The notes under the pieces are model-generated. The model was not told the DNA's origin and ran no database searches. It saw nothing but the letters and a program-made list of their open reading frames with translations. Below are positions 3,157-42,776 of a stretch of 43,312 nt of DNA, piece by piece. The translations under genes were made by a program, and so were the position numbers. Within the stretch, counting starts at the first letter, position 1, and each line of letters begins with the position of its first letter. Source of the stretch: a virus. Lineage: Duplodnaviria > Heunggongvirae > Uroviricota > Caudoviricetes. The stretch spans positions 1-43,312 of IMG/VR virus record IMGVR_UViG_2565956616_000006; one strand, 5' to 3'.

Positions 3157-3852
3157 ATGTTATATGCATTTAAGCTGGGCAGAAAACTGCGCGGCGAGGA
3201 ACCTTATTGCCCTGAAAAAGGCGGGAAAGGTGGCAGCTCTGATAAAAGCGCAAAGTATGCAGCAGAAGCTCAGAAGTATGCCGCAGACCTGCAAAATCAG
3301 CAGTTCAACACCATCATGAACAACCTGAAACCGTTTACTCCTCTGGCTGAGAAGTATGTCGGCAGCCTCGAGAACTTATCGTCTCTGGAGGGGCAAGGTC
3401 AGGCGCTTAACCAGTATTACAACTCTCAGCAGTACAAAGACCTTGCAAGTCAGGCGCGCTATCAGAGTCTGGCGGCAGCGGAAGCAACAGGTGGATTAGG
3501 TTCCACCGCAACCAGTAATCAGTTAGCAACAATCGCACCAACGCTTGGTCAGCAATGGCTATCTGGTCAGATGAACAACTACCAGAATCTGGCAAATATT
3601 GGTCTTGGCGCACTGCAAGGTCAGGCAAACGCCGGGCAAACATATGCCAACAACATGAGTCAGATTTCGCAGCAAAGTGCGGCTCTTGCAGCGGCAAATG
3701 CCAACAGACCATCAGCAATGCAATCTGCTATTGGCGGAGGTGCGTCTGGTGCTATTGCTGGGGCTGGACTTGCGAAATTAATTGGTTCATCAACTCCGTG
3801 GGGTGCTGGTATCGGTGCTGGTATCGGTCTGCTTGGTTCACTGCTTTATTAA
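3157..3852 (+). CDS. gp7: Ejection (E) protein gp7-like (231 aa)
   Basis: 231-aa ORF, Gln/Ala-rich with Gly-rich hydrophobic C-terminus (GAGIGAGIGLLGSLLY); position after gp14. Confidence 0.8.
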   Translation: MLYAFKLGRKLRGEEPYCPEKGGKGGSSDKSAKYAAEAQKYAADLQNQQFNTIMNNLKPFTPLAEKYVGSLENLSSLEGQGQALNQYYNSQQYKDLASQARYQSLAAAEATGGLGSTATSNQLATIAPTLGQQWLSGQMNNYQNLANIGLGALQGQANAGQTYANNMSQISQQSAALAAANANRPSAMQSAIGGGASGAIAGAGLAKLIGSSTPWGAGIGAGIGLLGSLLY

Positions 3853-3862
3853 GGGGTAATCA

Positions 3863-8587: not shown

Positions 8588-8655
8588 AGTTGAAGCCCCA
8601 ACTGCGGGAACAGTCAGGGCTTCGGTATCAACAAATCGGATTAGGAAATATTGAC

Positions 8656-9534
8656 ATGAAAAGTATAGCAAAGGCACAAAACGATTTCACCATCTTCAAA
8701 TTCGGCGACAGTGAAATCCGCGTCATCAACAAATGCGGTGAGCCGTGGTTTGTAGCAAAAGATGTTTGTGATGCTTTAACCCTGACTAACTCACGCAAGG
8801 CGCTTACTGCACTTGATGACGATGAAAAGGGAGTAACTTTAAGTTACACCCTTGGTGGTGAGCAGAATCTAAGCATTGTTAGCGAATCAGGTATGTATAC
8901 ATTGGTTCTGCGCTGCCGCGATGCTGTCAATAAAGGTTCGGTACCGCACAAATTCCGCAAGTGGGTAACAGCAGAAGTTCTACCTTCAATTCGCAAACAT
9001 GGCGAGTATGTGAAAGGCAAGAAAACCACTGTTGAGGAAAGAACGCCGCTACGCGATGCAGTAAACATGCTGGTAGGAAAGAAAGGACTTCGCTATGACG
9101 ATGCATACAATATGGTTCATCAGCGTTTTGGTATTGACAGCATTGATGAACTTTCAATTGAACAAATCCCGCTGGCCGTAGAGTACATCCACAGGGTAGT
9201 GCTTGAAGGCGAGTTTATCGGCAAGCAAGAGAAGAAAGCAAACGAGCTTTCTGCAAAAGAAGCAAACAGCCTTGTATGGCTATGGGATTATGCTAACCGT
9301 TCACAGGCATTATTCCGCGAACTGTATCCGGCATTAAAACAAATTCAATCGAACTATTCCGGAAGATGCTACGACTACGGTCATGAATTCTCGTATGTTA
9401 TCGGAATGGCGAGAGACGTTTTAATAAACCACACACGAGATGTTGATATTAATGAGCCAGACGGACCAATGAATCTTTCCGCATGGATGAGACTTAAGAA
9501 TAAAGAATTACCTCCTTCAGTACATAACTACTGA
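8656..9534 (+). CDS. ant: Antirepressor Ant (293 aa from ATG 8656)
   Basis: Immediately downstream of arc; ATG at 8656 preceded by AGGAAA; the 8590 start in the ORF track is a TTG. Confidence 0.75.
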
Positions 9535-11804: not shown

Positions 11805-11850
11805 ATTCGTAATGCGAAGGTCGTAGGTTCGACTCCTATTATCGGCACCA
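11805..11850 (+). tRNA. 3'-terminal 46 nt of tRNA-Thr(CGU) (anticodon loop to CCA); att core, not a complete tRNA gene
   Basis: ATTCGTAATGCGAAGGTCGTAGGTTCGACTCCTATTATCGGCACCA matches the 3' part of enterobacterial thrW as recalled; upstream 30 nt do not match the tRNA 5' half. Confidence 0.75.
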
Positions 11851-15314: not shown

Positions 15315-16375
15315 CCGTCCAGAAGAAGACATTTTCACTGGCTGGTATGTCGCCAAAATCCAGCAATATGACGGCAAAGTCAGGCATTAATACCGCAGAT
15401 ACAAGCAAAGTTTATCATTTGCTGGTGGTCGGAACGGATGCCTTAACCATATCAGAAATCTCGGGCGATGATATTAGCATTGAGAAGGTCAGCGGCTGCG
15501 CCAGAAAATTTCTGGTCGTAGATGATGTCTTCCGCTCGTGTAGTGACTCCACAAAAACATTCGTCCACGCGCGTGACGTTAACGAAATGAGCGCGATGTA
15601 CTGTGCATCTGGTGCTTCCAATAGCGAGTTTTCGGAGTCCATAAAAAAGAGCTTGCCGTTATGCGGCAACACGGTTTATGGTTATAAGGCACCTCATAAA
15701 ACGGGTGCCGGGATTGGCGTCCTGGTAAATCGAATGGCGACATATGACGCGCCGAGCGTCTTTTTTTATGTCGTAGGTCTGACTCACCCATTTTTTGGGC
15801 GTTGGTGTATAATCCAGCGCCTTTGTCAATCAATGGTGGCTCAGGCAGGGGCTTCTTCGGAAGCGCCGGTATCCATTCGAGCCGGTTACGCCAACCCTGT
15901 CTGGGCTACCACCAGCGAAATTGGCGTTTCCGGTGGTAGCGTTACATGCTATCGAATGGAGGCTGCCACATGCTGGCTACTACCCCTACCCAAAAACCGC
16001 AATTTATCTGGATTATCGCCGCAGTTCGCCGCGATTGCCCGACAATTACCGCCAAAATTCATCATATTGCTGCCGAGTCTGAACGCGATGCTCGCCGTTC
16101 TCTGGTGCGCGATCACGTCTGCTTTTTTGCTGGTCGTATCCGCATGGAGGTGGCTCATGATTAAAACCTACGATGTGCATATGGATCCCCTCGAACGCAC
16201 AAGCCAGATCATCACACTGACAGAAGTGATTAACGACATTCTGGTGAGCAACTCTCCCTCACGAGACGAAAGACTGAAGGCGTTACTCGCGATATTGGAT
16301 CTCGCCGTTCGTGACGTTCATTTCCTGCTGGAAGGTGGCGAAATGCCAGGAAAAACGGGGGCAACCAATGAATAA
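15308..16375 (+). CDS. Hypothetical ORF (355 aa); gene model uncertain
   Basis: ATG with GGAGG RBS 9 nt upstream, but low-complexity translation; internal RBS-supported starts at 15970 (other frame, 64 aa, ends 16164) and 16157 (same frame, 72 aa) suggest several small genes may occupy this interval. Confidence 0.3.
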
Positions 16376-29724: not shown

Positions 29725-30012
29725 ATGATAAGGGACAGGAAAGCTGAAGAACTGGAGTCAAAAGGGCTATACCGGAGAGCTGCCGCACGATGGGCAGAAG
29801 TCATGATGCTGGCAGATGGCGATAAAGAACGTGAACATGCAGCAAACAGACGCTCTGAATGTATCCGTAAGGCGGCACGCCCACCAGCAACTACAGACAG
29901 ATTCGGAGATTTAAGACAGGCAGTTAAGCGGACTCATTCGGCTCTTGGTATGGATGAGGAAGCGAGAGGGTATTTCAGGCGTTATCGCGATAAAGATTGC
30001 CAGAGACAGTAA
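29725..30012 (+). CDS. PerC-family-like transcriptional activator (95 aa)
   Basis: N-terminus MIRDRKAEELESKGLYRRAAARW resembles PerC-like proteins (from memory). Confidence 0.45.
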   Translation: MIRDRKAEELESKGLYRRAAARWAEVMMLADGDKEREHAANRRSECIRKAARPPATTDRFGDLRQAVKRTHSALGMDEEARGYFRRYRDKDCQRQ

Positions 30013-30354
30013 TGCTCTCTCTGTTTTGGCAAATTACCCCTCACTTTGAAGGGATCGGAGCTATAAAAATGGTGTTATCCGGCTTCCTGCATTGCAGGTT
30101 TTCGAAAGAATCAATGGGTTAGGTTATCGTGCAAATTTGCACTCTGCCAGCCAACGCAATTTCTCGTTGGCGGAAATATCAGGTATTTACTGAACGAACG
30201 GTCTACCCGCCTGTTCAACTACCAGTTGTACATGGCTGCTTTATGTGCAAATGGTGGTGAGAGAAAATTGTTTGGGGGTACTTTTGGGGGTATCTCCAAA
30301 GATGTAACTGGAAAATGTCTTTATATATCAATGTATTTTTATTGTTTGTTTTGT

Positions 30355-30372
30355 TCCTATTATCGGCACCAT
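30355..30372 (+). repeat. att direct repeat copy B (TCCTATTATCGGCACCAT)
   Basis: Exact 18-nt copy of the tRNA 3' core. Confidence 0.8.
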
Positions 30373-30975
30373 CAAGAAAATCAATAACTTAGCTTAACTT
30401 CTCTAAGAAATTGTATCTTCTGTTATCACTTACAAACGCCTATACGTTGTTATGGGCTTTGGTAGTGTAACACGTATGGGCGAGTAGTTCCCAGGCTCAA
30501 CCTCGTAACAAGTTCCTTTGAAGCTGGAAGACGTGCCACCGTCTCTAAACCTTCTACCAAAACTCTTAGCAAGATGTTCCACACCTGGCGCGGTGTCCAA
30601 TGATGCCACACGTCGTGAGACGTTGCAGAGGATAAACAGGCTAAATGATGGGAAGAGTTTTAAGTGCAATAGTGGATTAAAGCCCACCTCTTCAAAACCT
30701 AACTTGATCGGGAAAGAATCAAGCTCTAGCACGGTTTCGTCCACCGGAGTACAACGGGTGCCTGATAAGAGAAGAACTGCTAAGACTTCATAGCTTTTGT
30801 GAAAAAGCCCTTTTAGTGGATACGCCTACGGCGCTTATTTTTTGGTATAACCATCAAAGGCGCTTTATGGCTCCTATTGTCTTGAAAATGTATCTTTACT
30901 TGTATTGTGTTTTATGCGTAGTCTCCCTGTGTAGTATGTAACTTGTTAATTTTCATATGAATACAGAGGCACACG

Positions 30976-31134
30976 ATGAAAAACATTGCAGCTATCAAAC
31001 GTAATAACCGCAAGATTCACGCTCGTAAGTTCCTGTCTACGCCAGAAGGAAAAGCCTGGCTAGAGCGTAAACAGAGAGAGAACGAAGAAAGAAAACTCCT
31101 TAGTGAGTTGAAATGGCTTAGAGAGGATTTCTGA
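30976..31134 (+). CDS. Small basic hypothetical protein (52 aa)
   Basis: ATG with GAGG RBS; hand translation MKNIAAIKRNNRKIHARKFLSTPEGKAWLERKQRENEERKLLSELKWLREDF. Confidence 0.3.
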   Translation: MKNIAAIKRNNRKIHARKFLSTPEGKAWLERKQRENEERKLLSELKWLREDF

Positions 31135-31299
31135 AAATCTCCAGAACGCAACAGGGCGCATTCTAACGCTGTTTTCATTGCTCGGTATAGGGATGTATAG
31201 GTGATGTGTGTTTAATGCGTCTGTGAGCTTGTTTTATGTCTTATTTTGCATTTTCATAATGCAGGAGAGAACACGGAAAGCCTTAAAATTAATTATTGG

Positions 31300-31340
31300 G
31301 GTATTTAAGGCTATTTTTAGGGTATTTAAGGGTATTAAAC
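31300..31340. repeat. Direct repeats of GGTATTTAAGG (2 full + 1 partial), followed by phased TAAATA A-tracts to about 31460
   Basis: Seen directly; AT-rich, ORF-free. Confidence 0.5.
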
Positions 31341-31478
31341 TTGATTTAATTGATTAAAATATAAACAGATAATTATGTATCTTATTGATTTATAAGGTTA
31401 TTTTTAAATAAAGGTAAATAAAAAATAAATAGCCATAAATAGCTATAAATACATCTAAATACCTATATCCCTTCCCTT

Positions 31479-31886
31479 ATGGCTAGATTGCGAGAGGTGC
31501 TTAACGCGATTTTTAGCGCCCCCCGATCTGGAAAATCCAGAATCCCCAAATATCAGCAAGGAATTTTCTTGCGTAATCAACATCGTTTTTACCTATTAAA
31601 TCATTACACAGAAAGCCTTTCTGTAATGTCTCTCACTAAACTTTCACTAAACACGAGAATGATCGGTTTTATGTCGGATCAGATGCTAGAAACAGCACCA
31701 CGTCTCACAAGGGCTGTAAGCGATGAAACCAGTGTTTATGCGGGTGCAGGTCAAAATATAGGCCAAAGTCCATTTAACATAATAAACGTAATATGCACTA
31801 AGGAACACATAGAACGCCTTGAGTTGATGTATAAGGGGAAAAGTGGTGGATTTTTTTACGTAGGAGCACGAGAGGGCTTCTATTGA
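31479..31886 (+). CDS. Hypothetical protein (135 aa; real start may be internal)
   Basis: ORF in AT-rich region, no clear RBS. Confidence 0.3.
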   Translation: MARLREVLNAIFSAPRSGKSRIPKYQQGIFLRNQHRFYLLNHYTESLSVMSLTKLSLNTRMIGFMSDQMLETAPRLTRAVSDETSVYAGAGQNIGQSPFNIINVICTKEHIERLELMYKGKSGGFFYVGAREGFY

Positions 31887-32266
31887 CTTTTGTATGCTAT
31901 GAAATATAATAGAAGGTTTTTATTTTTATGTTGATAGTGATTGCACATTAAAGATTGAAAGCAAATTTAAACATAAATTTTCAACACGTGAAAGAACTTG
32001 TTCGACAAATGATAGAACGTTTATTGAGCAACAATTTTGCAGTGATGCGCTATATGCCGCATAACATAAGGCTTTGCTGATGATGACGCAAAAGTGAAGA
32101 AAGCTAACATTGCACTTTTTAAGCTACTTTTCATTGGATTTTTACGTAGGAATTACACAGGGATTAATCATCAATTACATTGAATTTAAGCCTGTTTTAG
32201 ATGTTTAATTTTGGTAGCAAGAAACACTTTTAGAAGATCATTGCACAGATGTTATGTGATAAATGG

Positions 32267-32426
32267 ATGTAACGATGGGTTACATTCAGCTATCTGAAAT
32301 ACTCTCTGTAAGAAATTTGGTAGTAACGATTCGTTACATAGACTAATTATTGAATGTAACGATATTACACATCGGTAGTAACGATTCGTTACATCGGCAG
32401 ATGATTGGTTGTAACGAAAGGTTACA
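32267..32426. promoter_or_regulatory. Array of five palindromic sites, consensus (T)GTAAC-N5-GTTAC(A), spaced about 56, 32, 22 and 33 bp
   Basis: Sites at about 32267, 32323, 32355, 32377 and 32410; two copies are identical (GTAACGATTCGTTAC). Confidence 0.55.
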
Positions 32427-33149
32427 CAATAAGACTAACATCTATAATACTAATAATAAAACTAACTATTAAACTATATAATATAATTCTTTTTTATCTT
32501 TATAAGAATAATTATAGGGATACCCGTTAGGGAGTCTAACGACTATCCCTTAATCTATTGGCATTCGCCAGAACCTTGCACAAGTTAGAGTGTTAGTCGT
32601 TAGACTGATACTTCTCATAACACATAGTTTTTTGTTTGTTGATGTTAGTTAGTAGATCTATGTTCGCTAATGCCGCTCACAACGAATATGTAATCTACTA
32701 TGTGCAAATAGCCTACGGCTTGCGTAAGGCTAAATAGTCTATGCGCTGTGCGCTTCAATAGTTCCATTGATGAGGCTTACGCCAATCTAACGATCATCAA
32801 TCTATTTAAGAGAAAATCTATTGTGCAATACTCTGACGAGTGCAATAACCTTGTGTGCTACGCGTTAGCGATGTTAGCACATAGACACAGACAACAACCA
32901 ACAACAAACAAAAAAGAAAGAATGGTTTTAGTAGTTGAAGGTTAAATAAGATTCTACCGCTTAAATCAAGCCTCTGGCGAGCTAAACAACCTCTACATAA
33001 GGGAATGTATTGTTTTTATCAAATACCTCGTTAGAACGCGTTTTAGAGCGTTTTAGAGAATAAGGAAGAATAGGAGCACTCGTAAGAGCACGAATTGCTA
33101 AGAAAAATTATAACACACTGAAAATGATCAATATTTTTATGGCCAGGGG

Positions 33150-33178
33150 TTGACAAAAGCTTTTAGTTATGGTAAAGT
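33150..33178 (+). promoter_or_regulatory. Sigma70-type promoter (TTGACA-17 bp-TAAAGT)
   Basis: Consensus -35 at 33150-33155, 17-bp spacer, -10 at 33173-33178, upstream of the island-2 small-gene cluster. Confidence 0.5.
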
Positions 33179-33301
33179 AATATTAGGGACAGGAAAACAT
33201 TCCTATCCTCTAAATAATTAAACCAATGCACCGCACTTTGAAGCCCAAGAGGCTTGCAAGGTGTCTTTTTCTTTTAACCAAATAGAATAGGAGGTTAATT
33301 A

Positions 33302-33484
33302 GTGAAGTATTTCACTTCTCAAGATGTAGTTGAAGCCTGGAAACGTGGTGAGATCAACCGCTTTAGGGTAAGAATGAATAGGAACACAGCGCGACGCTGT
33401 GGTTATCCAGAGCGTGAAAAATGTTTTGACGATGCACTGAAAATTATTGATGAACTGCGTAAGGCAGGAGCAGAGAAAGAATAA
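33302..33484 (+). CDS. Small hypothetical protein (60 aa)
   Basis: GTG start with AGGAGG RBS 7 nt upstream. Confidence 0.45.
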   Translation: MKYFTSQDVVEAWKRGEINRFRVRMNRNTARRCGYPEREKCFDDALKIIDELRKAGAEKE

Positions 33485-33505
33485 TAACAGGAGAAGGAGA
33501 AAACT

Positions 33506-33673
33506 ATGAGCGAAACCAAGAAACCAATTCCACGCACTTACCTACACGTTGACCCTGAAATTTTCAAGATTTTATTTGCTGAAGCCAAGAAAAGGCAAAT
33601 TATGGTCAGTGATTTGATGTTAGAAATCATTACTGAAGCAGCAGAGAACATCAAACAAAAAAAGGGTAAGTGA
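33506..33673 (+). CDS. Small hypothetical protein (55 aa), possible RHH/partition-like DNA binder
   Basis: ATG with GGAGAAGGAGA RBS; hand translation MSETKKPIPRTYLHVDPEIFKILFAEAKKRQIMVSDLMLEIITEAAENIKQKKGK. Confidence 0.45.
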   Translation: MSETKKPIPRTYLHVDPEIFKILFAEAKKRQIMVSDLMLEIITEAAENIKQKKGK

Positions 33674-33726
33674 TCCTCATTCACTTTAGTAGCGCATTAA
33701 GCGTGATTTATAAGGAGATAATTCTA

Positions 33727-34407
33727 ATGTCTAAAATTAAATTGATTCGTGAAAAATACCAGTATGTTGATCAACAAACAGGAGAAATTAAAGACCGAAC
33801 TTTGAATATACCACACTACTTTTGTGAGATTGAATTCATCTACTCCTCAAATATTGAGGATGGAAAAGCGAAGTTTAGTGCAGAAATGCAAAAATTATAT
33901 TGCTATGTTTCAGATTGGGAGAAATCAGGGGGGATATGTTTTGAAACACAAACGAAGTTAAGTAAAGTTTGTGGCTGTAGCCGTAAGACAGTTAATGAAT
34001 TGATTGGTCTTATGATTAAAATCGGTCTTTTAGAAGAGGTCGGAGAACGAATCCCAAAACGTCCATTAAAATTACGTGCGCTACCTCTCACAGATGCACA
34101 TATTACCCCCCCTAGAGAGTCATCACTACCTGATCCTTCTGAGAAAGAAAACGAATCTAATGAAATATTGAATGTTTCAGAAATCATCGTTGAAGAAGAA
34201 ATACAGGAATCAGAGTTCCCTGAGCGGCCCGAAATTTTTACTTGGCTTCTTTCCCTTGATAAGAAGAAACCACCGCACGAAGAAACAGAAGATTTTGTAA
34301 AACGAGCATTAGATTCAAAGAATATCTATCTTTGTGAAAATGATTTTGACTCTTTGATAATTGATCTCAAAAGTGAGAGCACAATATATGATTCACTACC
34401 CTTTTAA
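33727..34407 (+). CDS. Hypothetical protein with predicted helix-turn-helix (possible replication initiator/regulator)
   Basis: ATG with AAGGAG RBS; segment TQTKLSKVCGCSRKTVNELIGLMIKIGLLEE is HTH-like; acidic C-terminus. Confidence 0.45.
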   Translation: MSKIKLIREKYQYVDQQTGEIKDRTLNIPHYFCEIEFIYSSNIEDGKAKFSAEMQKLYCYVSDWEKSGGICFETQTKLSKVCGCSRKTVNELIGLMIKIGLLEEVGERIPKRPLKLRALPLTDAHITPPRESSLPDPSEKENESNEILNVSEIIVEEEIQESEFPERPEIFTWLLSLDKKKPPHEETEDFVKRALDSKNIYLCENDFDSLIIDLKSESTIYDSLPF

Positions 34408-34416
34408 GGAGAATAA

Positions 34417-34686
34417 ATGGCTTATAACATCACTATAGGAAACAAAACTATTGAAATAACTGAGAGCGGATACCACATTTTAAAAGCTATTTTGGAAATA
34501 GAGTTCTCACCGCCGACAGTGGTTAGCTTTTGTAGTTTAGGCGGCTACAGCGCACAACACGTGAATCATTGGTTAAACCATTTTACATCGTTCGGTGTGC
34601 TGGATTATGAAGGGATTAACCACACTACATTTCGTCTTTTGAAATTAAACAAAGATTTTGAATTGTTTATCACAAACAATCAATAA
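34417..34686 (+). CDS. Hypothetical protein (89 aa)
   Basis: ORF with AAGGAG RBS. Confidence 0.45.
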   Translation: MAYNITIGNKTIEITESGYHILKAILEIEFSPPTVVSFCSLGGYSAQHVNHWLNHFTSFGVLDYEGINHTTFRLLKLNKDFELFITNNQ

Positions 34687-34782
34687 CAACAGATCGGGCA
34701 ATACATATGGCAAATGCATTTATGGCGATATTCATCGTAACTATGGCATTAAGTTTTTATAATCCACATAAAAAGAGGGAAA

Positions 34783-35169
34783 ATGGGAAAAAAGAAACGT
34801 AATAACTTAAAACGTATTGAAAAAAACAGTAACTTCAATTCAACAAGACAACGTCCACCGACACATACCAATAACGAAATTCCAGGGGAAGAGATAATCT
34901 TCATTTTAGAATCTAACAGCCCACCACTTACAAACGAAGAATTAGAAATTATTCAATCAATGGGTGATGGTGTGTATTTCAAACCCAGAACAAGAAAGAC
35001 AACGATTATAGAACCTGGCACATTAAAGAAATGGCAGCTGTTAAATTTTACCAGCTACAGGCACTATATCGGTTTTAATAGTTTCAACAATCAGGTAGGC
35101 GGCGTTACAGAAACAGATCTGATGCAGCACCTGATCGACACTCTCGCATCTAACAAACGTTCAAACTAA
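34783..35169 (+). CDS. Hypothetical protein (128 aa)
   Basis: ORF with AGAGGGAAA RBS. Confidence 0.45.
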   Translation: MGKKKRNNLKRIEKNSNFNSTRQRPPTHTNNEIPGEEIIFILESNSPPLTNEELEIIQSMGDGVYFKPRTRKTTIIEPGTLKKWQLLNFTSYRHYIGFNSFNNQVGGVTETDLMQHLIDTLASNKRSN

Positions 35170-35186
35170 AAATAAAAGGAACAACA

Positions 35187-35390
35187 ATGATCGACCATAT
35201 ACAGGAAACACAATTATTTCAGATGATCCTGTCTGATGCAAAAAACTATGCTGAGTTAATTCGGCTGGCAAAAGAAACAGAAGACTACGAAGCATTAGAG
35301 CGTTATCGTGATGAAGTGCTGACGCTCAAGACACCTTTTAACATCGTATTGAATATGATTAATGATGCATTACAAGGAGAAGCCGCATAA
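35187..35390 (+). CDS. Hypothetical protein (67 aa)
   Basis: ORF with AAAGGA RBS. Confidence 0.4.
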   Translation: MIDHIQETQLFQMILSDAKNYAELIRLAKETEDYEALERYRDEVLTLKTPFNIVLNMINDALQGEAA

Positions 35391-35698
35391 TGGAAGAAGA
35401 TATTAGCAATGCAATGGAACAACTTTTAGATCTGACTATCTCACTACAAACAAGAATAAATCAAGCCTATTCAGATTTATGCGATTACACGCTCTCTCAA
35501 TGCGTTATTAGCTTAATGAAGGTGAATGTAAGCCTTGACGATTTTATCTCTCTGGGGAGCGGTTTAGAGCTATCAGAGGACAATGCCAGGCTGTGCACTC
35601 AAATCATCACAGACACCGCAAGCACGTTAAAGGCTGCAAGTGAAGAGATTCAGCAATTAGTAAATGATTTAGCAAAAAGTGCTATTTCTTCTAAGTGA
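35390..35698 (+). CDS. Hypothetical protein (102 aa)
   Basis: ORF with AAGGAGAAG RBS, coupled to previous gene. Confidence 0.45.
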   Translation: MEEDISNAMEQLLDLTISLQTRINQAYSDLCDYTLSQCVISLMKVNVSLDDFISLGSGLELSEDNARLCTQIITDTASTLKAASEEIQQLVNDLAKSAISSK

Positions 35699-36683
35699 TA
35701 ATGAAAATCATTTGCATTTATAACAATTTCATTATATAATGAAATTAGGGGTAGATAAAAAGGTTTTGACTGGTGTTAATCCTTCTACTGTCATAAATCC
35801 CTGCATATGGAAGGTGATAGCCTCAAAGGTTGAGTGGCATTAACCTCTAACAAATATTACCTTCCATCTCTCAAGAAGTTTTAGAATAATCATAACTCCC
35901 TCTTTGATTGTTGATTGTTTCTACGTTGTGTTGATGAATGTTGTTAGGCATTGTGCTTAATTTTGATAAAAGCGGGTAGGTGTTATCTCCTTGCCCTTCC
36001 CGCTATTATTTTTCATCTATGCTTATCCTAAAGCTCCTTATTTTGTCCGAAAACATTAAAGAGCCTTACACTGATAGTTATATTTTATAACTATTTACTA
36101 ACATCATTAAACTCTTATTTAATGACGGAAGTTAGTAACAGAATAATCTATTAAGTTGTTGTCAAAAAACTATCATCTGCATAGCGTTAGCCGCAAGTAG
36201 AGAGAGTTTAGTTAAGAATGGTGCAATAAACTTTGGAAATATTGATAGCAAAACTAGTTTTATAGAATGCGGATCTATAATCTTTGGTTGTAAAAACGAT
36301 TTTCTGAAACGGTAGATTACTGTTGGTGTAGTTAATCATTATTAAAAATTTAATCTGTGAGTAGATTGGAATAGTGATTCCTTAAAATCTGACTGGTGCA
36401 TCCACACCATGAAAGATAGCGGTTGGCCACCGCGCCCCGAATAGATATTCCTGATTGATTCCGCATGTTTTCCTAAGAGCATGTTTTCAGGAGTATCTAT
36501 TCACCCTTTAAGCATATCATCAAGTATATTTAAAAAGTGTATTTGCTGATATGTTTAATCCTCTTATAGTTTAACTTATCAATTATGTAATTGCCCGCAC
36601 GTTAAAGCCCCTTTGCTGGTCAGAATTAACCTCTTACGGCATTGGGGCTTTTTATTTGTCTGGCACTAACAGGAACGTTATTT

Positions 36684-36881
36684 ATGAAACAAGAAATGAT
36701 TATCAGCAAAGACGGGGAAACGATGATTGTTAGTGATGAAAACCTCATTAAGGTTGCCGCACTGTTGGGAGTTACTCCCGAAAGTCTTCGTTCTACCACT
36801 GCTCAATTATTTAAATCGGCTGATGCGGTTAGTCTTGCTGATGCCCTTAAATCTAAAATTAAACAACTGAAAGGAAAATAA
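36684..36881 (+). CDS. Small hypothetical protein
   Basis: Internal ATG (MKQEMIIS) of ORF 36642-36881. Confidence 0.35.
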   Translation: MKQEMIISKDGETMIVSDENLIKVAALLGVTPESLRSTTAQLFKSADAVSLADALKSKIKQLKGK

Positions 36882-36885
36882 TCTT

Positions 36886-37269
36886 ATGGCTAACCCATAT
36901 GGAAAATTAAAAGCAGTGAATGCGGATAACTCCCGTTCACGCTGTAAGGTAGTAGCTTACGCTGCTGATCCAGTGCTGCAAGATCGCCTCGTCAAACTGG
37001 CTTCACCTCTCACTGACGATCTTATTGTCGGGGCTTTGCTGAAAGCCGATGGCACCAAAGCAACAACCGCATCTGATATTGCTCACGTAGTAGTTGAACC
37101 GGCTTATGAAGGACAGGAAAGCGTAGTGGTTGCACATCCTACTTTCGTTATTCTGGCTGAAGATGGGATTGAATTTAACAGCATGGAAAAGGCAAGTGTT
37201 ATTGCAAAACTGCAATCTCTCGGCTTTGTAATTGCTGGTTATGAAGAACTTGCGATCCCTACGACTTAA
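36886..37269 (+). CDS. Hypothetical protein (127 aa)
   Basis: ORF with AAAGGAAAA RBS. Confidence 0.5.
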   Translation: MANPYGKLKAVNADNSRSRCKVVAYAADPVLQDRLVKLASPLTDDLIVGALLKADGTKATTASDIAHVVVEPAYEGQESVVVAHPTFVILAEDGIEFNSMEKASVIAKLQSLGFVIAGYEELAIPTT

Positions 37270-37283
37270 CAAGGAAAATAATA

Positions 37284-38315
37284 ATGAATGATTTATCAAC
37301 ATATTTTGGCGTTAATACTGCGGTAGTAACTCCATTTGCTTATGAGAATGCACTTAATACCCTGATTACTAATCTCGATCTGTTCGATGTGCAATATCAT
37401 ACAGAAAACAGCATTCTTCTTACCGACCTGATTGATCAGTTTGTGCAGGTAGCTGGGGAAACCTCGCCTTACGCTCAAAGCGACTGGAACGCCTCTAAAC
37501 GTCAGGAATGGTCAAACAAACTTTTCCAGATGAAACACGTCGGCAGTATTAACGCTGTTACTTCTCGTGACCTGGAACAATACAGCCGCCAATATCCAAA
37601 CCGTTCTGATGCTATGCTGGTAGCGGTTAATGATTTCTCTGAGGCTCATTACCGTTCACACGCAAACCGTGTTGAAGTGGATCTGATTACCGCGCTGCTG
37701 GGCCTGAAAGTTGAATCTGAATATGCCGGACAAGGTGATCTCGACTTCCTCGACGGTCAGGCTAAAACCACGGTACCCGCTATCGACTTTGCATCGACTA
37801 CTGTTAACCCGTTCCTTGCTATTCGTAAAGCGGTGCGCTTACAGAGTGAAAAGCTGGGGTCTGGTCTTGCTGCAAAGCGAACTGGTGTAATTATCTTTGC
37901 TGCTGGCACTGCTGCTGATGGTTTGTCATCTAACCCGCTGATCAGTGACATGGTGAAATATGCAGGCGATGCGAGTGCTACGGCCCTGTTTACCCGTATG
38001 GTTGATTCTAACCCAGCCTATGACTCTTTCCAGATTGGTGGGATCACTGTTATTGATGTGTCAATGTTTCCTGAGATTGTTGCTCACATCGGAGAGAACG
38101 GTTTCGCAATTGTTCCGGTAATGGATAAAGCGGCACAGTGTTACCAGCTTCATAGCGGCGTTGGTGTGCGTCATGCTGAGTTAGGTCAAGATGCCGTGTT
38201 GCATCACCAATATCTAATCAAGGATGAATTCCAATTCCCATCTGTGGTTACTGAGACATCTTATCTGCCAGTAAACAACATTCCGCAAGCTATCATCTTC
38301 GGATCTGCTGCGTAA
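37284..38315 (+). CDS. Hypothetical protein (343 aa), possibly structural
   Basis: Long ORF with AAGGAAAA RBS; no recognised catalytic motifs. Confidence 0.5.
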   Translation: MNDLSTYFGVNTAVVTPFAYENALNTLITNLDLFDVQYHTENSILLTDLIDQFVQVAGETSPYAQSDWNASKRQEWSNKLFQMKHVGSINAVTSRDLEQYSRQYPNRSDAMLVAVNDFSEAHYRSHANRVEVDLITALLGLKVESEYAGQGDLDFLDGQAKTTVPAIDFASTTVNPFLAIRKAVRLQSEKLGSGLAAKRTGVIIFAAGTAADGLSSNPLISDMVKYAGDASATALFTRMVDSNPAYDSFQIGGITVIDVSMFPEIVAHIGENGFAIVPVMDKAAQCYQLHSGVGVRHAELGQDAVLHHQYLIKDEFQFPSVVTETSYLPVNNIPQAIIFGSAA

Positions 38316-38466
38316 TAAAGCGTTAATAGACGATTCCCCATCGGGGCAATAAGGGTAAAGGGATTAACTAACCTGTAGGCGCAAATACAGTAACGAATCT
38401 CTTTGCCCTTTTTGTTTTTCTACTGTCTACAAACCCAAATAAAAATATATATGTGAGAGAAAACCA

Positions 38467-38679
38467 ATGAATACAGAAAACCCACAATCCTTTATTCTTA
38501 AGGCTGTAAAAGAACTGGCAGCTATTAGCGAGGAATCAGTTATAAACACATCGGCGCTTTGCCGCCTTTTAGAAATTGATGCAAATAATGTGCGCCAGCG
38601 TGTCTTTCAGACTGGGTGCAGCACTTTCGAAGCAATTCAATACTATTGCTCTAAAAACAATAATAAACAACAATCATAA
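38467..38679 (+). CDS. Small hypothetical protein (70 aa)
   Basis: ORF with GAGAGAAAA RBS. Confidence 0.4.
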   Translation: MNTENPQSFILKAVKELAAISEESVINTSALCRLLEIDANNVRQRVFQTGCSTFEAIQYYCSKNNNKQQS

Positions 38680-38697
38680 TACAGGGAAACAATTAGC

Positions 38698-40539
38698 ATG
38701 TTAGACCTTACCGTCAGCCGCTTATCAAACGTTGTCACCTTCCAGGTTGATCGACCATCATTAGAGAAAGCAAAAGCAGAAGTAGAAAAACTTCGTAAAC
38801 AAATGGCGGCTGTGAAAGATATAGAATTGCGTGTTAAGACACATAAACAATCAACCGCTAAAGCAAAAAAAGACGTAGACGATATTGCTAAAAAGCAAGC
38901 ACAGGCTGATAAAGCTAATGCTAAAGCACAATTAGCCGCTCAACGTGTAGTTGCAAGAGAACAAAAAGCCCTGGCAGCACGCAAAGAGAAGGCAGAATTA
39001 AAGCTTTTAGACGTTGGATCAAGCATTAGTGCAATGCACCGTCTTTCTGTAGCGGAACAATATAAAGCTATTGCACAGGCTAGAGAAATTGCCCTCCAAT
39101 ATGAAAGAGGCGCTATTAGTCTGGCACGTATGAATAGCCAAATGAAACGCCTACAACAGCAACAACGTAAGATTAATGGCAATCGTAACGCTCACGCTAA
39201 AGCCTATGCACCTGTTAAGGGTAGCGGGAGTATTGGCGGCGGTGCTGCGGCTGTTATGCTGGGTGGCTTAGGCGCTGGCGCTGCATATATGGCTATGAGC
39301 AAAGCCTCTGAATTTGTTACTAACAGCTTTGCCAGTGCTGAAACGCTGGGAGAATTGTATAGCCGTGCGAAGCTGGGCGGTGTAGACGTTAACCAGATGA
39401 ACAATATTGAGCAATGGGCCTACAAAAACGGCGTTGATTCAATGATGGGGGATCAAGGTAAACGTAAGTATCTCGATCAGATGAAAGATGTACGGGAGAA
39501 GGCTACTAAATCTTATGATGAGGCTGAATATGTAGTTGATAAGAAAACTGGTAAAGGAGAATGGAAGGGCGGCGATAGCGGCATCAATACTTTAATGAAT
39601 GAAGGATTCTTAACTAAAAAGGATCTAAAAGACTTTGCTGATAATCCGGCTGGTCTGGTTAGTAAAGCAGTTCAGGGAATGGTGAAGAAAGGCTATTCAG
39701 ATGCACAAATCGGTAGTCGTCTGGAAGATCTGGCTGATGATTTGATGCTCACCTCTAAATACTGGACACGCTCCGCTAAAGAAGTGGAACAATCAGCACG
39801 AGAACAACGAGAATCAGGGCGCTGGGTAACACAGGCACAACAGGAAAGCGTTATTAAATTCCGTGAACTGAATAATGCACTTAGTGGGCTTTCTGACTCA
39901 CAAGGGATCGCCTTTGTTGATGGCTTTATGAAATCTCTTGATCCGAAAGTGATTGAAGAGTTTAAAAAGAGCATGGTTGCAATGCTGCCAATGTTTACCA
40001 AATTAGGCGAGGCTATCGGCGGATTGGTTAACGCTGTAATGAAAGCAATCAACTGGCTGATGAAAAACGACGAGAAGACGGCAGCTATTCAGAAGAATTT
40101 AGGTGATGCACCGCCACTATCTAACGAAGGAATGAAGCAGAATCTTTCTAATCTCACTCCTGATCAATATAAAGGCGCTGGCACCGGAACAATTAAGCCA
40201 GATAACAGCAATTCCCTGGTTAACACTATTAAAAGCTGGTTTATGCCAGAAGAAACGGTAGGTGGGGCGCAGGCTGTAAATCAATACAGTCTCGAAGGAC
40301 AAAACATTGCAAATCTGAAACAGAGTGCAGCACAACAAGCTTTCAAGGCTCCTTCTTACACCTTTGCGCCTGTTATCCACTTCAATCCAGAATTACAAGT
40401 AAATGCAGAAGTGCCGCTAACTATCGAATCAGACACCGGACGATTGAGCGAATTTATCGACTTCAAATCAAAGGCATCCTCCGCTGAGTTTAGCAAGCTA
40501 TTAACGCTGGGTGTTATGTCAGGCGGGTCAACCTATTAA
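38698..40539 (+). CDS. Hypothetical protein (613 aa): N-terminal Lys/Ala/Gln-rich coiled coil plus Gly-rich hydrophobic segment; tape-measure-like or ejection/pilot-like
   Basis: Residues about 20-165 strongly coiled-coil-like; GSGSIGGGAAAVMLGGLGAGAAYMAMS segment resembles membrane-active segments of tape measure and E proteins. Confidence 0.55.
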   Translation: MLDLTVSRLSNVVTFQVDRPSLEKAKAEVEKLRKQMAAVKDIELRVKTHKQSTAKAKKDVDDIAKKQAQADKANAKAQLAAQRVVAREQKALAARKEKAELKLLDVGSSISAMHRLSVAEQYKAIAQAREIALQYERGAISLARMNSQMKRLQQQQRKINGNRNAHAKAYAPVKGSGSIGGGAAAVMLGGLGAGAAYMAMSKASEFVTNSFASAETLGELYSRAKLGGVDVNQMNNIEQWAYKNGVDSMMGDQGKRKYLDQMKDVREKATKSYDEAEYVVDKKTGKGEWKGGDSGINTLMNEGFLTKKDLKDFADNPAGLVSKAVQGMVKKGYSDAQIGSRLEDLADDLMLTSKYWTRSAKEVEQSAREQRESGRWVTQAQQESVIKFRELNNALSGLSDSQGIAFVDGFMKSLDPKVIEEFKKSMVAMLPMFTKLGEAIGGLVNAVMKAINWLMKNDEKTAAIQKNLGDAPPLSNEGMKQNLSNLTPDQYKGAGTGTIKPDNSNSLVNTIKSWFMPEETVGGAQAVNQYSLEGQNIANLKQSAAQQAFKAPSYTFAPVIHFNPELQVNAEVPLTIESDTGRLSEFIDFKSKASSAEFSKLLTLGVMSGGSTY

Positions 40540-40586
40540 TCATCACTGTGGGGCTGTTTAGCCCCCTTAAATAAGGATTACAAATT

Positions 40587-41255
40587 ATGGCAATGGGTCC
40601 GTTAACCATTGGTCGCCCGACTGAGGCGAAAATCAACAGCACAAGCAACGATAGAACAACCAAAGGGGGTAACGGCTTTGCGATCATTACCTCTAACCTC
40701 GGCAGTGGTGCAAATGCTGCTTACAATGACTACCAGGCATTATCATTTGATAGCGTGGAATCGACGAAAGTTAGCCGAAATGCAGACGTTACAAGCTATG
40801 CCGTCGAATCAGGATCAGAAGTTAGTGATCATGTTCAAATACGGAATAACAAGTTCACATTACAGGGGCGTATCTCTGAAACCGTATTGAAGCTCAATCC
40901 CGATATGATTAAGAATGCGGGAATTAACGGCAATCGACGTATGCTTATGCTTGAATACCTAAATCAGTTGATGGACAGTCGCCAACCTTTCCTACTTGTC
41001 ACTGAGTTAAAAAATTATGACAACGTTGTGTTAGTTGGCATGTCTTATGAAGAAGAAGCAAGCGAAAGTCTATTGTTTACTCTTGATTTTGAGCAAATCC
41101 GTCTTGTCTCTAAAGCAACTACAAGCGCAATTGCGGTAAAAACAGCACCAAATAAATCTGTAGGGGGACAGGTTAAAATGCAGGTAAATACAACAGAACA
41201 GAAAAATCAAAAAAGCCCAGGGCAAGACGTTGTAACGCCAGTATTTAAACAATAG
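40587..41255 (+). CDS. Hypothetical protein (222 aa)
   Basis: ORF with AAGGA RBS, downstream of a stem-loop. Confidence 0.5.
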   Translation: MAMGPLTIGRPTEAKINSTSNDRTTKGGNGFAIITSNLGSGANAAYNDYQALSFDSVESTKVSRNADVTSYAVESGSEVSDHVQIRNNKFTLQGRISETVLKLNPDMIKNAGINGNRRMLMLEYLNQLMDSRQPFLLVTELKNYDNVVLVGMSYEEEASESLLFTLDFEQIRLVSKATTSAIAVKTAPNKSVGGQVKMQVNTTEQKNQKSPGQDVVTPVFKQ

Positions 41256-41336
41256 CCTTAAACGCCTATGAAACGCTCTGTAACGATGTAATTATAAAAG
41301 AGGCCACCAATCTATGTTGAAGCCTCTTTATTGCGC

Positions 41337-42701
41337 CTATGGCGTTGTTTTGCGCCTTAAATTTGATTTTTTATTGATTGATAAGCCTTTCTCTATTTCA
41401 GGGTAGCGTAGAAGCTCAATATAGTTTTTAAGCTCTACTGGAGAAGCTGCATTCTTGCTATATGTGCGGAATGTCTCTGTATTGCCGCGTGTATGGCCCA
41501 GGAGAAGGGCGATCCTGTCTTCTGGAATTTGATTTCGATCAAGAAGCTGTGCTACTCCGTGTCTCAGAGAATGAAACACTTTCCTTTCTGTTCCCTTTTC
41601 CCCTAAAGCCTTTCGTTTAGCTCTTGTAAATCGTTGTGTATGCCACGTAGAGCGTTTACCGTCAGCACGCTCTGTAATGCTGGCGTGATAGAACAAAAAG
41701 CCATTGTGAGGCTTTTCACGAAGAGATAACACCAATGGAGTGATAAGGCTATGCACAGGCACAAGACGTGCCGCAGCTTTCGTCTTTCCCTGTGTGATTT
41801 CAAAACACAGCACACCTTCGATCTCTTTCACATCGTCTATTGTGAGACTTGCTATCTCATTGATCCGCATACCTGTATATAAACCGATAAGACACAAAGC
41901 CATCATTTCTTTGTTTTCTGCTGAATTACCGGAAAATACTTGCAACACCTGCAATAACTCTTTGTTAGAAAATGCCTCGTAGCTCTCTCTACTTTGTGCC
42001 ACATCAAGCCTATGCCCTCGCCAGGGGGAGAGCGCCCTTTCTGGCGCATCGTGGTAACGTGATGAAGCTAACTCCCATAGCTGGGCCATTGGGCTGATAT
42101 AATTTGCAATTGATTGTTGTGAAAGGGTTTTTTGCATGTGTTCAATCCAGCCTGTAACAGTGGTGCGGCTTACATCTTGCAATGCAATATCAGGCTTTTT
42201 ACGGTAGGAGAGAAACATCTCTACCGCTTTTCTTGCCTTAGCTAAAGTGGCTGGCTTCTTCTTCGTGCTGTTAATTGTCAGGTAGATTTCAAGAATTTTA
42301 AGCAATGACGGACACGAAGACGCTGTATCTTGCATTCTGGTAGCTGTTTTGGCGTATTTAGCCTTACTGCGTAACAGTTCCAGCGTGTTTTCTATTGTGC
42401 TGTTTACAGGGGCAACACTCTCCCGTAAGCAATGGTATTCATCTGCAATCTGATCACGCTTTCTACGTGCAACACGAAGATTACTTGTGTGCAGACTTCT
42501 GACAAACGTCCTTTTTCCTTCAAAAAAGGGCTGCATATACACAGGCAGCGTGATCCTTAAATAGTAGTTACCGTAAGAATCACAGATTAAGTATTGGTTA
42601 GGCTTGTATCTCATAAAATCTCCGGCTAAAGTGTCGGAGCGTTTGTAATGTGAAAATTGATTGTGACGCATAGAAAATGATGATTTTTCTATAAGATTCA
42701 A
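41337..42701 (-). CDS. int: Tyrosine recombinase/integrase of island 2 (probable start at 42614)
   Basis: C-terminal catalytic motifs (FHSLRHG; LLGHTRGNTETFRTYS); unrelated in sequence to the island-1 integrase; internal ATG (MRYKPNQ) has a GGAG RBS. Confidence 0.8.
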   Translation of the reverse strand: MNLIEKSSFSMRHNQFSHYKRSDTLAGDFMRYKPNQYLICDSYGNYYLRITLPVYMQPFFEGKRTFVRSLHTSNLRVARRKRDQIADEYHCLRESVAPVNSTIENTLELLRSKAKYAKTATRMQDTASSCPSLLKILEIYLTINSTKKKPATLAKARKAVEMFLSYRKKPDIALQDVSRTTVTGWIEHMQKTLSQQSIANYISPMAQLWELASSRYHDAPERALSPWRGHRLDVAQSRESYEAFSNKELLQVLQVFSGNSAENKEMMALCLIGLYTGMRINEIASLTIDDVKEIEGVLCFEITQGKTKAAARLVPVHSLITPLVLSLREKPHNGFLFYHASITERADGKRSTWHTQRFTRAKRKALGEKGTERKVFHSLRHGVAQLLDRNQIPEDRIALLLGHTRGNTETFRTYSKNAASPVELKNYIELLRYPEIEKGLSINKKSNLRRKTTP

Positions 42702-42758
42702 TCAATTAGTAATGGTCGTAGGTGATGGCATTAACACGAGATTAATCGAGTGTTTTAC

Positions 42759-42776
42759 TCCTATTATCGGCACCAT
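42759..42776 (+). repeat. att direct repeat copy C (TCCTATTATCGGCACCAT)
   Basis: Exact 18-nt copy; 20 of 20 with copy A when flanks are included. Confidence 0.8.

Follow-up and report, generated by a model that had tools for sequence, protein, structure and literature searches.

A candidate iteron origin in an apparent Escherichia coli phage satellite and predicted phage nucleases that carry the DNA-binding domain of its putative initiator

A cluster of GTAAC-N5-GTTAC palindromes lies in a stretch of the E. coli chromosome that seems to hold no genes. Which process uses these sites is not obvious from the repeats themselves, and a first-pass annotation had named three candidates: repressor operators, a partition centromere, or replication iterons. 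In this study, we compared the array, its flanks and the neighbouring proteins with their counterparts in homologous elements and in phages. Our reading, which we consider likely, is that the repeats (32268-32426) are iterons and that, together with an unwinding element at 32427-32516, they form the origin of a phage satellite bound by a RepA_N-like initiator encoded at 33727-34407.

The palindrome array and the adjoining A+T-rich stretch

The window, that is, the whole stretch of 43,312 nucleotides that was analysed, is E. coli chromosome, and the array is found inside a 12.4-kb element within it (30355-42775). The lack of an adjacent gene, already noticed in the first pass, is borne out by RefSeq, which has no CDS at 31135-33301 in identical genomes. 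Moreover, no Rfam family was retrieved for 30200-33500 even at E <= 1, so this non-coding stretch is not a known RNA.

Four exact copies of GTAAC-N5-GTTAC (32269-32283, 32323-32337, 32378-32392 and 32411-32425) fall within 157 bp, far above the chance expectation of 0.03 per window; 100 dinucleotide-preserving shuffles gave one match at most. A fifth exact match of the window, at 8833, is unrelated to the array. Thus, the five palindromes proposed initially are four exact sites and a degenerate one at 32356-32371 (GTAACGATATTACACA), which shows three mismatches when aligned ungapped or, equivalently, a 1-bp deletion in the spacer and the loss of a G. This degenerate site is found unaltered in the diverged arrays of the same type (type A, see below) of islands L006 and L044. 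The features of the array and its right flank are as follows.

32268-32284, plus strand: candidate iteron 1, TGTAACGATGGGTTACA; exact GTAAC-N5-GTTAC.
32322-32338, plus strand: candidate iteron 2, AGTAACGATTCGTTACA; exact, opens 55-bp unit 1.
32355-32371, plus strand: candidate iteron 3, TGTAACGATATTACACA; degenerate, with a 1-bp spacer deletion, unaltered in other A-type arrays.
32377-32393, plus strand: candidate iteron 4, AGTAACGATTCGTTACA; exact, opens 55-bp unit 2.
32410-32426, plus strand: candidate iteron 5, TGTAACGAAAGGTTACA; exact, its right arm GTTACA being the -35 of a sigma-70-like match.
32421-32448, plus strand: sigma-70-like promoter match GTTACA-16-TATAAT; 10 of 12 positions, overlapping iteron 5 and the A+T-rich stretch.
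32427-32516, no strand: A+T-rich stretch, candidate DNA-unwinding element; 87% A+T, kept beside every repeat type.
32533-32606, no strand: AGTCTAACGACT / AGTCGTTAGACT, a perfect inverted repeat of 12 bp on the right side of the A+T-rich stretch, independent of repeat type.

The five sites are spaced 54, 33, 22 and 33 bp from centre to centre, instead of the 56, 32, 22 and 33 bp given earlier, and all these distances are multiples of 11 bp. The suggestion that the sites share one face of the helix holds at an 11-bp repeat only; with a turn of 10.5 bp, they run out of phase by roughly half a turn from the first site to the last. The sequence (T/A)GTAACGA is on the plus strand in all five sites, which makes them co-oriented direct repeats with internal dyad symmetry. 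Sites 2, 4 and 5 have the left flank GGT in common, and sites 2 and 3 and sites 4 and 5 make up two tandem 55-bp units that are 84% identical. The 5-bp centres of these dyad-symmetric direct repeats (GATGG, GATTC and GAAAG) are not poly-A. Altogether, tandem units of 22 or 55 bp, as in classical iterons, explain the spacing better than same-face phasing does.

The least stable 80 bp of the window (32436-32516; 89% A+T) start 10 bp to the right of the last site. Their nearest-neighbour dG is -75.4 kcal/mol, about 4.7 standard deviations off the mean of the 43.3-kb window (-108.7, sd 7.1). Between 31900 and 32900, we found neither a DnaA box, allowing one mismatch, nor a match to the IHF consensus WATCAANNNNTTR. 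A motif to the left of the array, ATTNCACAG, was dropped because it is not above chance in the window.

The promoter match at 32421-32448, which agrees with the sigma-70 consensus at 10 of 12 positions and has its -35 inside the last site, is what speaks for reading the array as a set of operators only. The helix-turn-helix (HTH) protein encoded at 33727-34407 would then occupy the five sites cooperatively as a repressor or activator, for instance a master regulator of the satellite, acting on a rightward promoter of a single long operon, with no role in replication. However, promoter-like matches around the array are not above chance (8 found, 9.9 expected from shuffles), the -35 match is not carried over to arrays of type B, and the array is some 880 bp upstream of the first gene. 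The adjoining A+T-rich minimum, a repeat copy number that ranges from 1 to 8 and the SSB-like tail of the protein are, instead, origin-like features. Given, in addition, the fold and family matches of the protein described below, we regard a purely regulatory array as unlikely. The same sites could also serve as an operator, judging from the promoter match that overlaps the last of them, in a second, autoregulatory function alongside the origin. Initiators that bind iterons commonly autoregulate too.

Other elements were noticed in the same non-coding stretch. The sequence ACAATAAGA (32427-32437) directly follows the last repeat in A-type, D-type and more distant islands (L008, L011, L014 and L029), and is a candidate site for a factor independent of repeat type. 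Further right, at 32690-32770 and also at 3230-3370 of L014, there are repeated GC-rich palindromes (TGCGCTGTGCGC) and a stem-loop (AGCCTACGGCTTGCGTAAGGCT) with no Rfam match. Lying between the putative origin and the first gene, this conserved non-coding region may contain a structured leader or signals for transcription. A second repeat cluster, left of the array (31292-31463), comprises 21-bp tandem copies of GGTATTTAAGG and one inverted copy. The window's second least stable stretch (31352-31432, 86% A+T) lies inside this cluster, which is present in only some related islands and could be an alternative or additional origin, a pac site or a promoter region. Finally, 40-70 nt within 31482-31554 are 85-100% identical to mostly unannotated regions of lytic coliphages of about 150 kb (92CQ, PD114, PaulScherrer, KKE7M and Citrobacter phage Tr1); this may be a shared regulatory element that allows the island to sense a phage signal or copy it.

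Repeat type and the N-terminal domain of the candidate initiator

Two proteins had been put forward as binders of the array, a small ribbon-helix-helix (RHH) protein and the HTH protein. The genes to the right of the array are listed here.

33302-33484, plus strand: 60-aa protein, identical in A-type and B-type islands.
33506-33673, plus strand: 55-aa RHH-like protein; a 98% identical homologue lies beside the nuclease gene in phages inny and muut.
33727-34407, plus strand: candidate initiator, 226 aa; residues 1-130 of RepA_N-like winged-helix type A, then an acidic linker (disordered) and a C-terminal part whose last residues are YDSLPF.
34417-34686, plus strand: 89-aa protein with types that parallel the C-terminal type of the initiator.

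When homologous islands were aligned, the flanks of the array proved to be conserved on both sides and the repeats between them unrelated. Five repeat types could be defined, each adjoined by the A+T-rich stretch. Type A is GTAAC-N5-GTTAC, type B is GGAA-N5-TTCC, and type C is (A)ACAG-N4-CTGT(T). Type D, TAGGTCAC-N-GTGAxCTA (core TCAC-N-GTGA), forms exact 22-bp tandems of 1-8 copies, and type E is CCCCTATCA-N4-TGATACCC (TATCA-N4-TGATA). In the motif search in homologous islands that the first-pass annotation had called for, A-type arrays recur, and the other islands carry other repeat types, each matched to an N-domain. Distant relatives in other species keep the layout and have repeats of their own.

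The N-terminal domain of the HTH protein (about 125 residues) exists in distinct types, and the repeat type beside the A+T-rich stretch corresponds to the type of this domain in 37 of 37 E. coli islands. These 37 loci represent 12 distinct module combinations; four E-type loci bring the set to 41 islands. The E-type domain was known at first only from a phage nuclease, and was then found in E. coli and Enterobacter islands that have the fifth repeat type. That such islands would carry a matching repeat was a prediction set before the search, and it was borne out: three exact copies lie beside the A+T-rich stretch in all four loci in which the array region is on the contig.

The other parts of the region behave differently. 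The C-terminal half of the HTH protein comes in three types that reassort independently, as do the two types of the 0.8-kb DNA that separates array and genes, the two of the 60-aa protein and the three of the 55-aa RHH-like protein; each of these modules co-occurs with several repeat types. Because array and N-domain are 1.3-1.9 kb apart, with reassorting modules between them, simple linkage does not explain their match. By this comparison of sequences, the specificity of the repeats is matched to the cognate N-domain. In agreement with this, the HTH protein stands as the candidate binder, and the RHH-like protein does not: its types do not track repeat type, since type 1 accompanies arrays of three kinds (A, C and D) and type 2 arrays of two (C and D). 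The 55-aa protein was ruled out on these grounds, and the 60-aa protein because it is identical in A-type and B-type islands.

These observations also bear on a partition centromere bound by a ParB- or RHH-type protein. Phased repeats with a small RHH-like protein nearby would suit such a site. However, no ParA, ParM or ParB was found among the Pfam and PHROG matches of the island proteins, the element is integrated in the chromosome, and, as stated, the RHH-like types are indifferent to the repeats. We give a centromere a barely appreciable probability. Of the three uses named in the first-pass annotation, iterons are favoured by the tracking of the HTH N-domain by repeat type and by the RepA_N-like predicted fold of that domain.

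The left edges of the arrays hold remnants of other types. L009 has A, D and C sites at 3540-3860, arrays of types B and C contain a fused A/D site, and B-type arrays a single E site (L005 3620-3680; L052 1070-1120). Read from their sequence, these remnants record successive cassette replacements inserted beside the A+T-rich stretch. Footprinting among A-type arrays showed nine variable positions, one of them in the arms (P = 0.33); these arrays are too similar to inform.

In family searches, the 226-aa protein reached a single Pfam family, the generic HTH_36; its score of 22.2 bits falls short of the gathering cut-off (25). This family is matched by 17 of 19 family members. Pfam RepA_N (PF06970) was not matched by the protein at E <= 0.1, nor was it among the families retrieved for the 19 members at E <= 1. 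A sequence-profile search of the PDB returned generic winged-helix regulators only, and hence a fold comparison was needed to reveal the relationship to RepA_N. By two methods, the best matches were RepA_N initiators, over some 100-116 residues as opposed to about 70 for regulators. The N-terminal domain is thus predicted to have the RepA_N / DnaD-NTD fold. PHROG families agree with an initiator, as 7 of 9 matches are annotated 'replication initiation', 'O-like' or 'DnaD-like helicase loader' (E values 9e-6 to 9e-3). Both results argue against the purely regulatory reading. The family is small, with 31 cluster representatives among 1.84 billion proteins, and no helicase or primase domain was found in the 226-aa protein.

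Following the acidic linker, the protein ends in PF in 12 of 19 members and in F in 15 of 19, with a pattern ...[D/E]x[I/L]PF exemplified by EDFDIPF, FEDLPF and, in the window, YDSLPF (34380-34407). The C-terminal tip of SSB is DDDIPF, on which many replication proteins dock (PMC5872125). The likeness of the two sequences suggests a recruitment of SSB-interacting replication proteins, the tail of the window protein, YDSLPF, being less acidic than DDDIPF.

From these elements, we infer the following course of initiation. The array would be the iteron set of the vegetative origin of the 12.4-kb satellite (30355-42775). Dimers of the initiator would bind the five dyad-symmetric, co-oriented repeats through the RepA_N-like winged-helix N-domain, and their loading on repeats set apart by multiples of 11 bp would distort the adjacent 32436-32516 and open it. 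The replisome, supplied by the helper phage or the host, would be recruited via the disordered acidic linker and the ...[D/E]x[I/L]PF tail. Iteron cassette and initiator N-domain are swapped jointly between islands, giving at least five specificities.

The island as an apparent satellite, and the phage chimeric nucleases

The element that houses the array is bordered by direct repeats and encodes an integrase and several virion-like proteins.

30355-30371, plus strand: attL, 17-bp direct repeat TCCTATTATCGGCACCA (tRNA-Thr 3' end), left border of the island.
37284-38315, plus strand: major-capsid-like protein, 343 aa (phrog_29, 5.5e-5); homologues in other islands have Pfam Phage_cap_E.
38698-40539, plus strand: tape-measure-like protein, 613 aa, 31% identical to a phage inny protein.
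40587-41255, plus strand: Dit-like tail protein, 222 aa, 48% identical to a phage inny protein.
41337-42614, minus strand: tyrosine integrase.
42759-42775, plus strand: attR, 17-bp direct repeat, right border of the island.

A third copy of the 17-mer is located at 11834-11850. The three copies (starting at 11834, 30355 and 42759) indicate that three elements sit in tandem at thrW, namely a prophage (up to 11.8 kb), a second element (12.0-30.3 kb) and, last, the satellite. ARAGORN detected no intact tRNA in the window; in strain EC9, the same element lies directly at thrW. The upstream prophages contain Rfam matches to sar antisense RNA (P22-type; 8588-8654, minus strand), isrK (15689-15766) and C4 antisense RNA (P1/P7-type immunity; 15829-15916). 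The middle element encodes, at its right end and immediately ahead of attL of the satellite, a homologue of PerC-family transcriptional activators (29725-30012; Pfam PerC, 2.6e-33).

Judging from its att repeats, integrase and capsid-, tape-measure- and Dit-like genes, the element is apparently a phage satellite. A 4.8-kb segment of the island is matched in 738 of 5,426 complete E. coli genomes (about 14%). Only 2 of 72,556 plasmid records match, one of them a record of 4.9 Mb. A plasmid replicon was dropped as a reading for this reason, and the near-absence from plasmids fits a helper-dependent replicon. Scans of virus contigs for arrays matched three contigs, whose identifiers suggest prophage-type predictions made on isolate genomes. 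Pfam and PHROG searches of the island revealed no gene for a portal, terminase, helicase, primase or polymerase, so the replisome would have to come from the helper phage or the host.

The gene content invites a further reading of the array, a packaging site (pac/cos-like) at which the HTH protein acts as small terminase and passes the DNA to the large terminase of the helper. Small terminases, lambda Nu1 for example, have a winged-helix fold and bind to repeated sites; moreover, a satellite needs packaging specificity, yet the island has no recognisable small-terminase gene. On the other hand, there is no terminase family among the Pfam, PHROG and fold matches of the protein, and the unwinding-type A+T-rich stretch and the RepA_N-like fold indicate replication initiation. 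A packaging role of the array is, in our judgement, very improbable.

Recombination sites have also to be considered. Many related islands encode a serine recombinase of the Resolvase family (179-183 aa) on the minus strand, left of the array (for instance L005 2566-3117, L006 2408-2947 and L016 2012-2563). Others have in that segment a plus-strand 183-aa ORF with no Pfam match (L004 1959-2510, L007 1971-2522 and L015 1398-1949). The window island has neither, and the segment may be invertible or replaceable. Spacings of 54 and 33 bp recall the subsites of Tn3/gamma-delta res, and resolvase-family genes lie 1-1.5 kb left of the array in L005, L006, L009, L010, L016, L018 and others, as a res-like set of sites would have it. 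Nevertheless, the window island has a full array and no recombinase gene, and repeat type follows the HTH N-domain and not the presence of a recombinase. Sites of serine recombinases are, besides, 25-34 bp in length, longer than the 17-bp dyads of this array. We consider such a set of sites exceedingly improbable.

A different line of evidence for the N-domain and its site comes from phages. Over 624 nt that take in the 55-aa gene and the initial 390 nt of the initiator gene, the island is 95.4% identical to phage inny. Inny is a virulent 147-kb myovirus (Justusliebigvirus, Stephanstirmvirinae). At the protein level, the A-type domain of the island is 87.9% identical to inny_184 over 140 aa. 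In inny_184, the domain is part of a chimera, of which we found three in phages.

MN850601.1, locus L002 4233-5336: inny_184, 367 aa; A domain, B domain and nuclease.
Phage muut, locus L030 1228-2226: muut_154; E domain, B domain and nuclease.
Phapecoctavirus Mt1B1_P17, locus L031 1414-2400: QNJ49226; C domain, B domain and nuclease.

Across the three, the inner B domain is constant and the outer domain is swapped. The nuclease domain (C-terminal 110-119 aa, approximately) matches MUG113 (PF13455) at 25.0 bits, over a cut-off of 22.3, and we take this family to belong to the GIY-YIG superfamily. It also matches T5orf172 (PF10544) at 17.7 bits, below the cut-off of 20, and phrog_681 'endonuclease' at 3e-19. 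T5orf172 falls within the GIY-YIG superfamily (PMC8263062).

The whole 147,483-bp genome of inny has no GTAAC-N5-GTTAC site, which rules out that inny uses the A-type domain on its own genome. Matches to GGAA-N5-TTCC, a low-information motif, number 10 in this genome and are scattered and unclustered. The chimeras thus give independent support for a specific site of the N-domain, one that is important to a parasite of these phages; by themselves, they do not prove that the target site is an origin. A virulent phi92/phAPEC8-like myovirus of the Stephanstirmvirinae would be the probable helper.

A precedent exists in phage ICP1, whose nuclease Odn joins an N-terminal domain 42% identical to the DNA-binding domain of RepA from the satellite PLE to a T5orf172 nuclease (PMC8263062). 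Cleavage of the PLE origin by Odn requires the iterons, and PLE evades it through exchange of its replicon module (PMC8263062). By analogy, the GIY-YIG chimeras that some phages have built from copied N-domains would probably cut the satellite origin, as Odn does on PLE.

Relation to known origins and significance

The closest parallel is PLE, a satellite of Vibrio cholerae with an origin and RepA that is opposed by Odn of ICP1 (PMC7145576, PMC8263062). The phage nucleases described here resemble Odn in joining an initiator-type DNA-binding domain to a GIY-YIG nuclease. Unlike Odn, they have two tandem DNA-binding domains, the copies are 88% identical at the amino acid level as compared to 42%, and they are predicted from sequence. 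The initiator has no detectable sequence homology to PLE RepA, to which it is 15% identical in the structural alignment, and leaves Pfam RepA_N unmatched. Hosts and phages are Enterobacteriaceae and Stephanstirmvirinae, and integration involves a tyrosine integrase where PLE has a large serine recombinase. The island further differs from PLE in its capsid-, tape-measure- and Dit-like genes, the SSB-tip-like C-terminus of its initiator and its at least five specificities. Likewise, the RepA_N plasmid initiators of Firmicutes (pSK41, pTZ2162; PDB 4PQL, 4PT7, 4PTA and 5KBJ) show no match at the sequence level. In contrast to those plasmids, the iterons have no central poly-A tract, the putative origin is non-coding and about 1.3 kb upstream of the gene, and the replicon is almost absent from plasmids.

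The lambda origin consists of dyad-symmetric iterons, an A+T-rich stretch and an inverted repeat, with no DnaA box, and the O protein has a type-specific N-domain and a recruiting C-domain. The order at our locus is the same, four to five dyad iterons, A+T-rich stretch and inverted repeat, again with no DnaA box. The type-specific N-terminal DNA-binding domain, which recalls the type-specific lambdoid replicons, and the putatively recruiting C-terminal domain are also O-like, and PHROG 'replication initiation O-like' is matched weakly (1e-4 to 3e-3). In lambda, the origin is embedded in the O gene and the partners recruited by O are P and DnaB, whereas the island has no P-like gene. Iteron plasmids (pSC101, R6K, RK2, F and P1) have tandem repeats with a period of about 22 bp in variable copy number, an A+T-rich unwinding element and a Rep protein encoded in cis. 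The array shares the period of about 22 bp, the adjoining A+T-rich stretch, a cognate protein in cis and the variable number of repeats. However, plasmid Reps have tandem WH1-WH2 domains and bind asymmetric iterons as monomers, usually with DnaA boxes present, while the sites studied here are dyad-symmetric and accompanied by no DnaA box. PICI/SaPI elements and P4 also pair a satellite initiator with a cognate iteron origin around an A+T-rich stretch, and the island is similar in having its own initiator matched to iterons beside such a stretch. Their initiators include helicase and/or primase domains, which the 226-aa protein lacks.

The combination of an iteron origin and a RepA_N-like initiator in a satellite with a nuclease directed against that origin is of a kind known from PLE and ICP1. 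What appear to be new are the satellite family together with the hosts and phages involved, its five matched specificities, the presence of two DNA-binding domains in the nucleases, and the SSB-like tail of the initiator. We found nothing on this satellite family or on a link between Stephanstirmvirinae and satellites in a literature search of incomplete coverage, and earlier work is possible. To our knowledge, ICP1 acting against PLE is the only case of a phage that targets a satellite origin with a nuclease built from the initiator of the satellite.

We tentatively propose, at slightly less than even chances, that the array is the contested site of a second arms race over the origin of a satellite, one that evolved independently. 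The satellite, carried by about 14% of complete E. coli genomes and found in further Enterobacteriaceae, would parasitise virulent Stephanstirmvirinae. Matched swapping of cassettes, with at least five specificities, would stand against two-domain GIY-YIG nucleases that target two satellite types, and mimicry of the SSB tip would recruit the replisome. If this is true, the system would be a tractable E. coli counterpart of PLE and ICP1, involving phi92/phAPEC8-like lytic phages of therapeutic relevance. Origin-directed nucleases and replicon swapping would be recurrent in phage-satellite conflict and no peculiarity of Vibrio. The five natural pairs of protein and DNA specificity on a single winged-helix scaffold would lend themselves to the study and engineering of recognition, and the SSB-tail idea would offer a testable answer to how a small RepA_N initiator with no helicase or primase recruits a replisome. 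Finally, around one in seven E. coli genomes would carry an unrecognised element that may restrict therapy phages.
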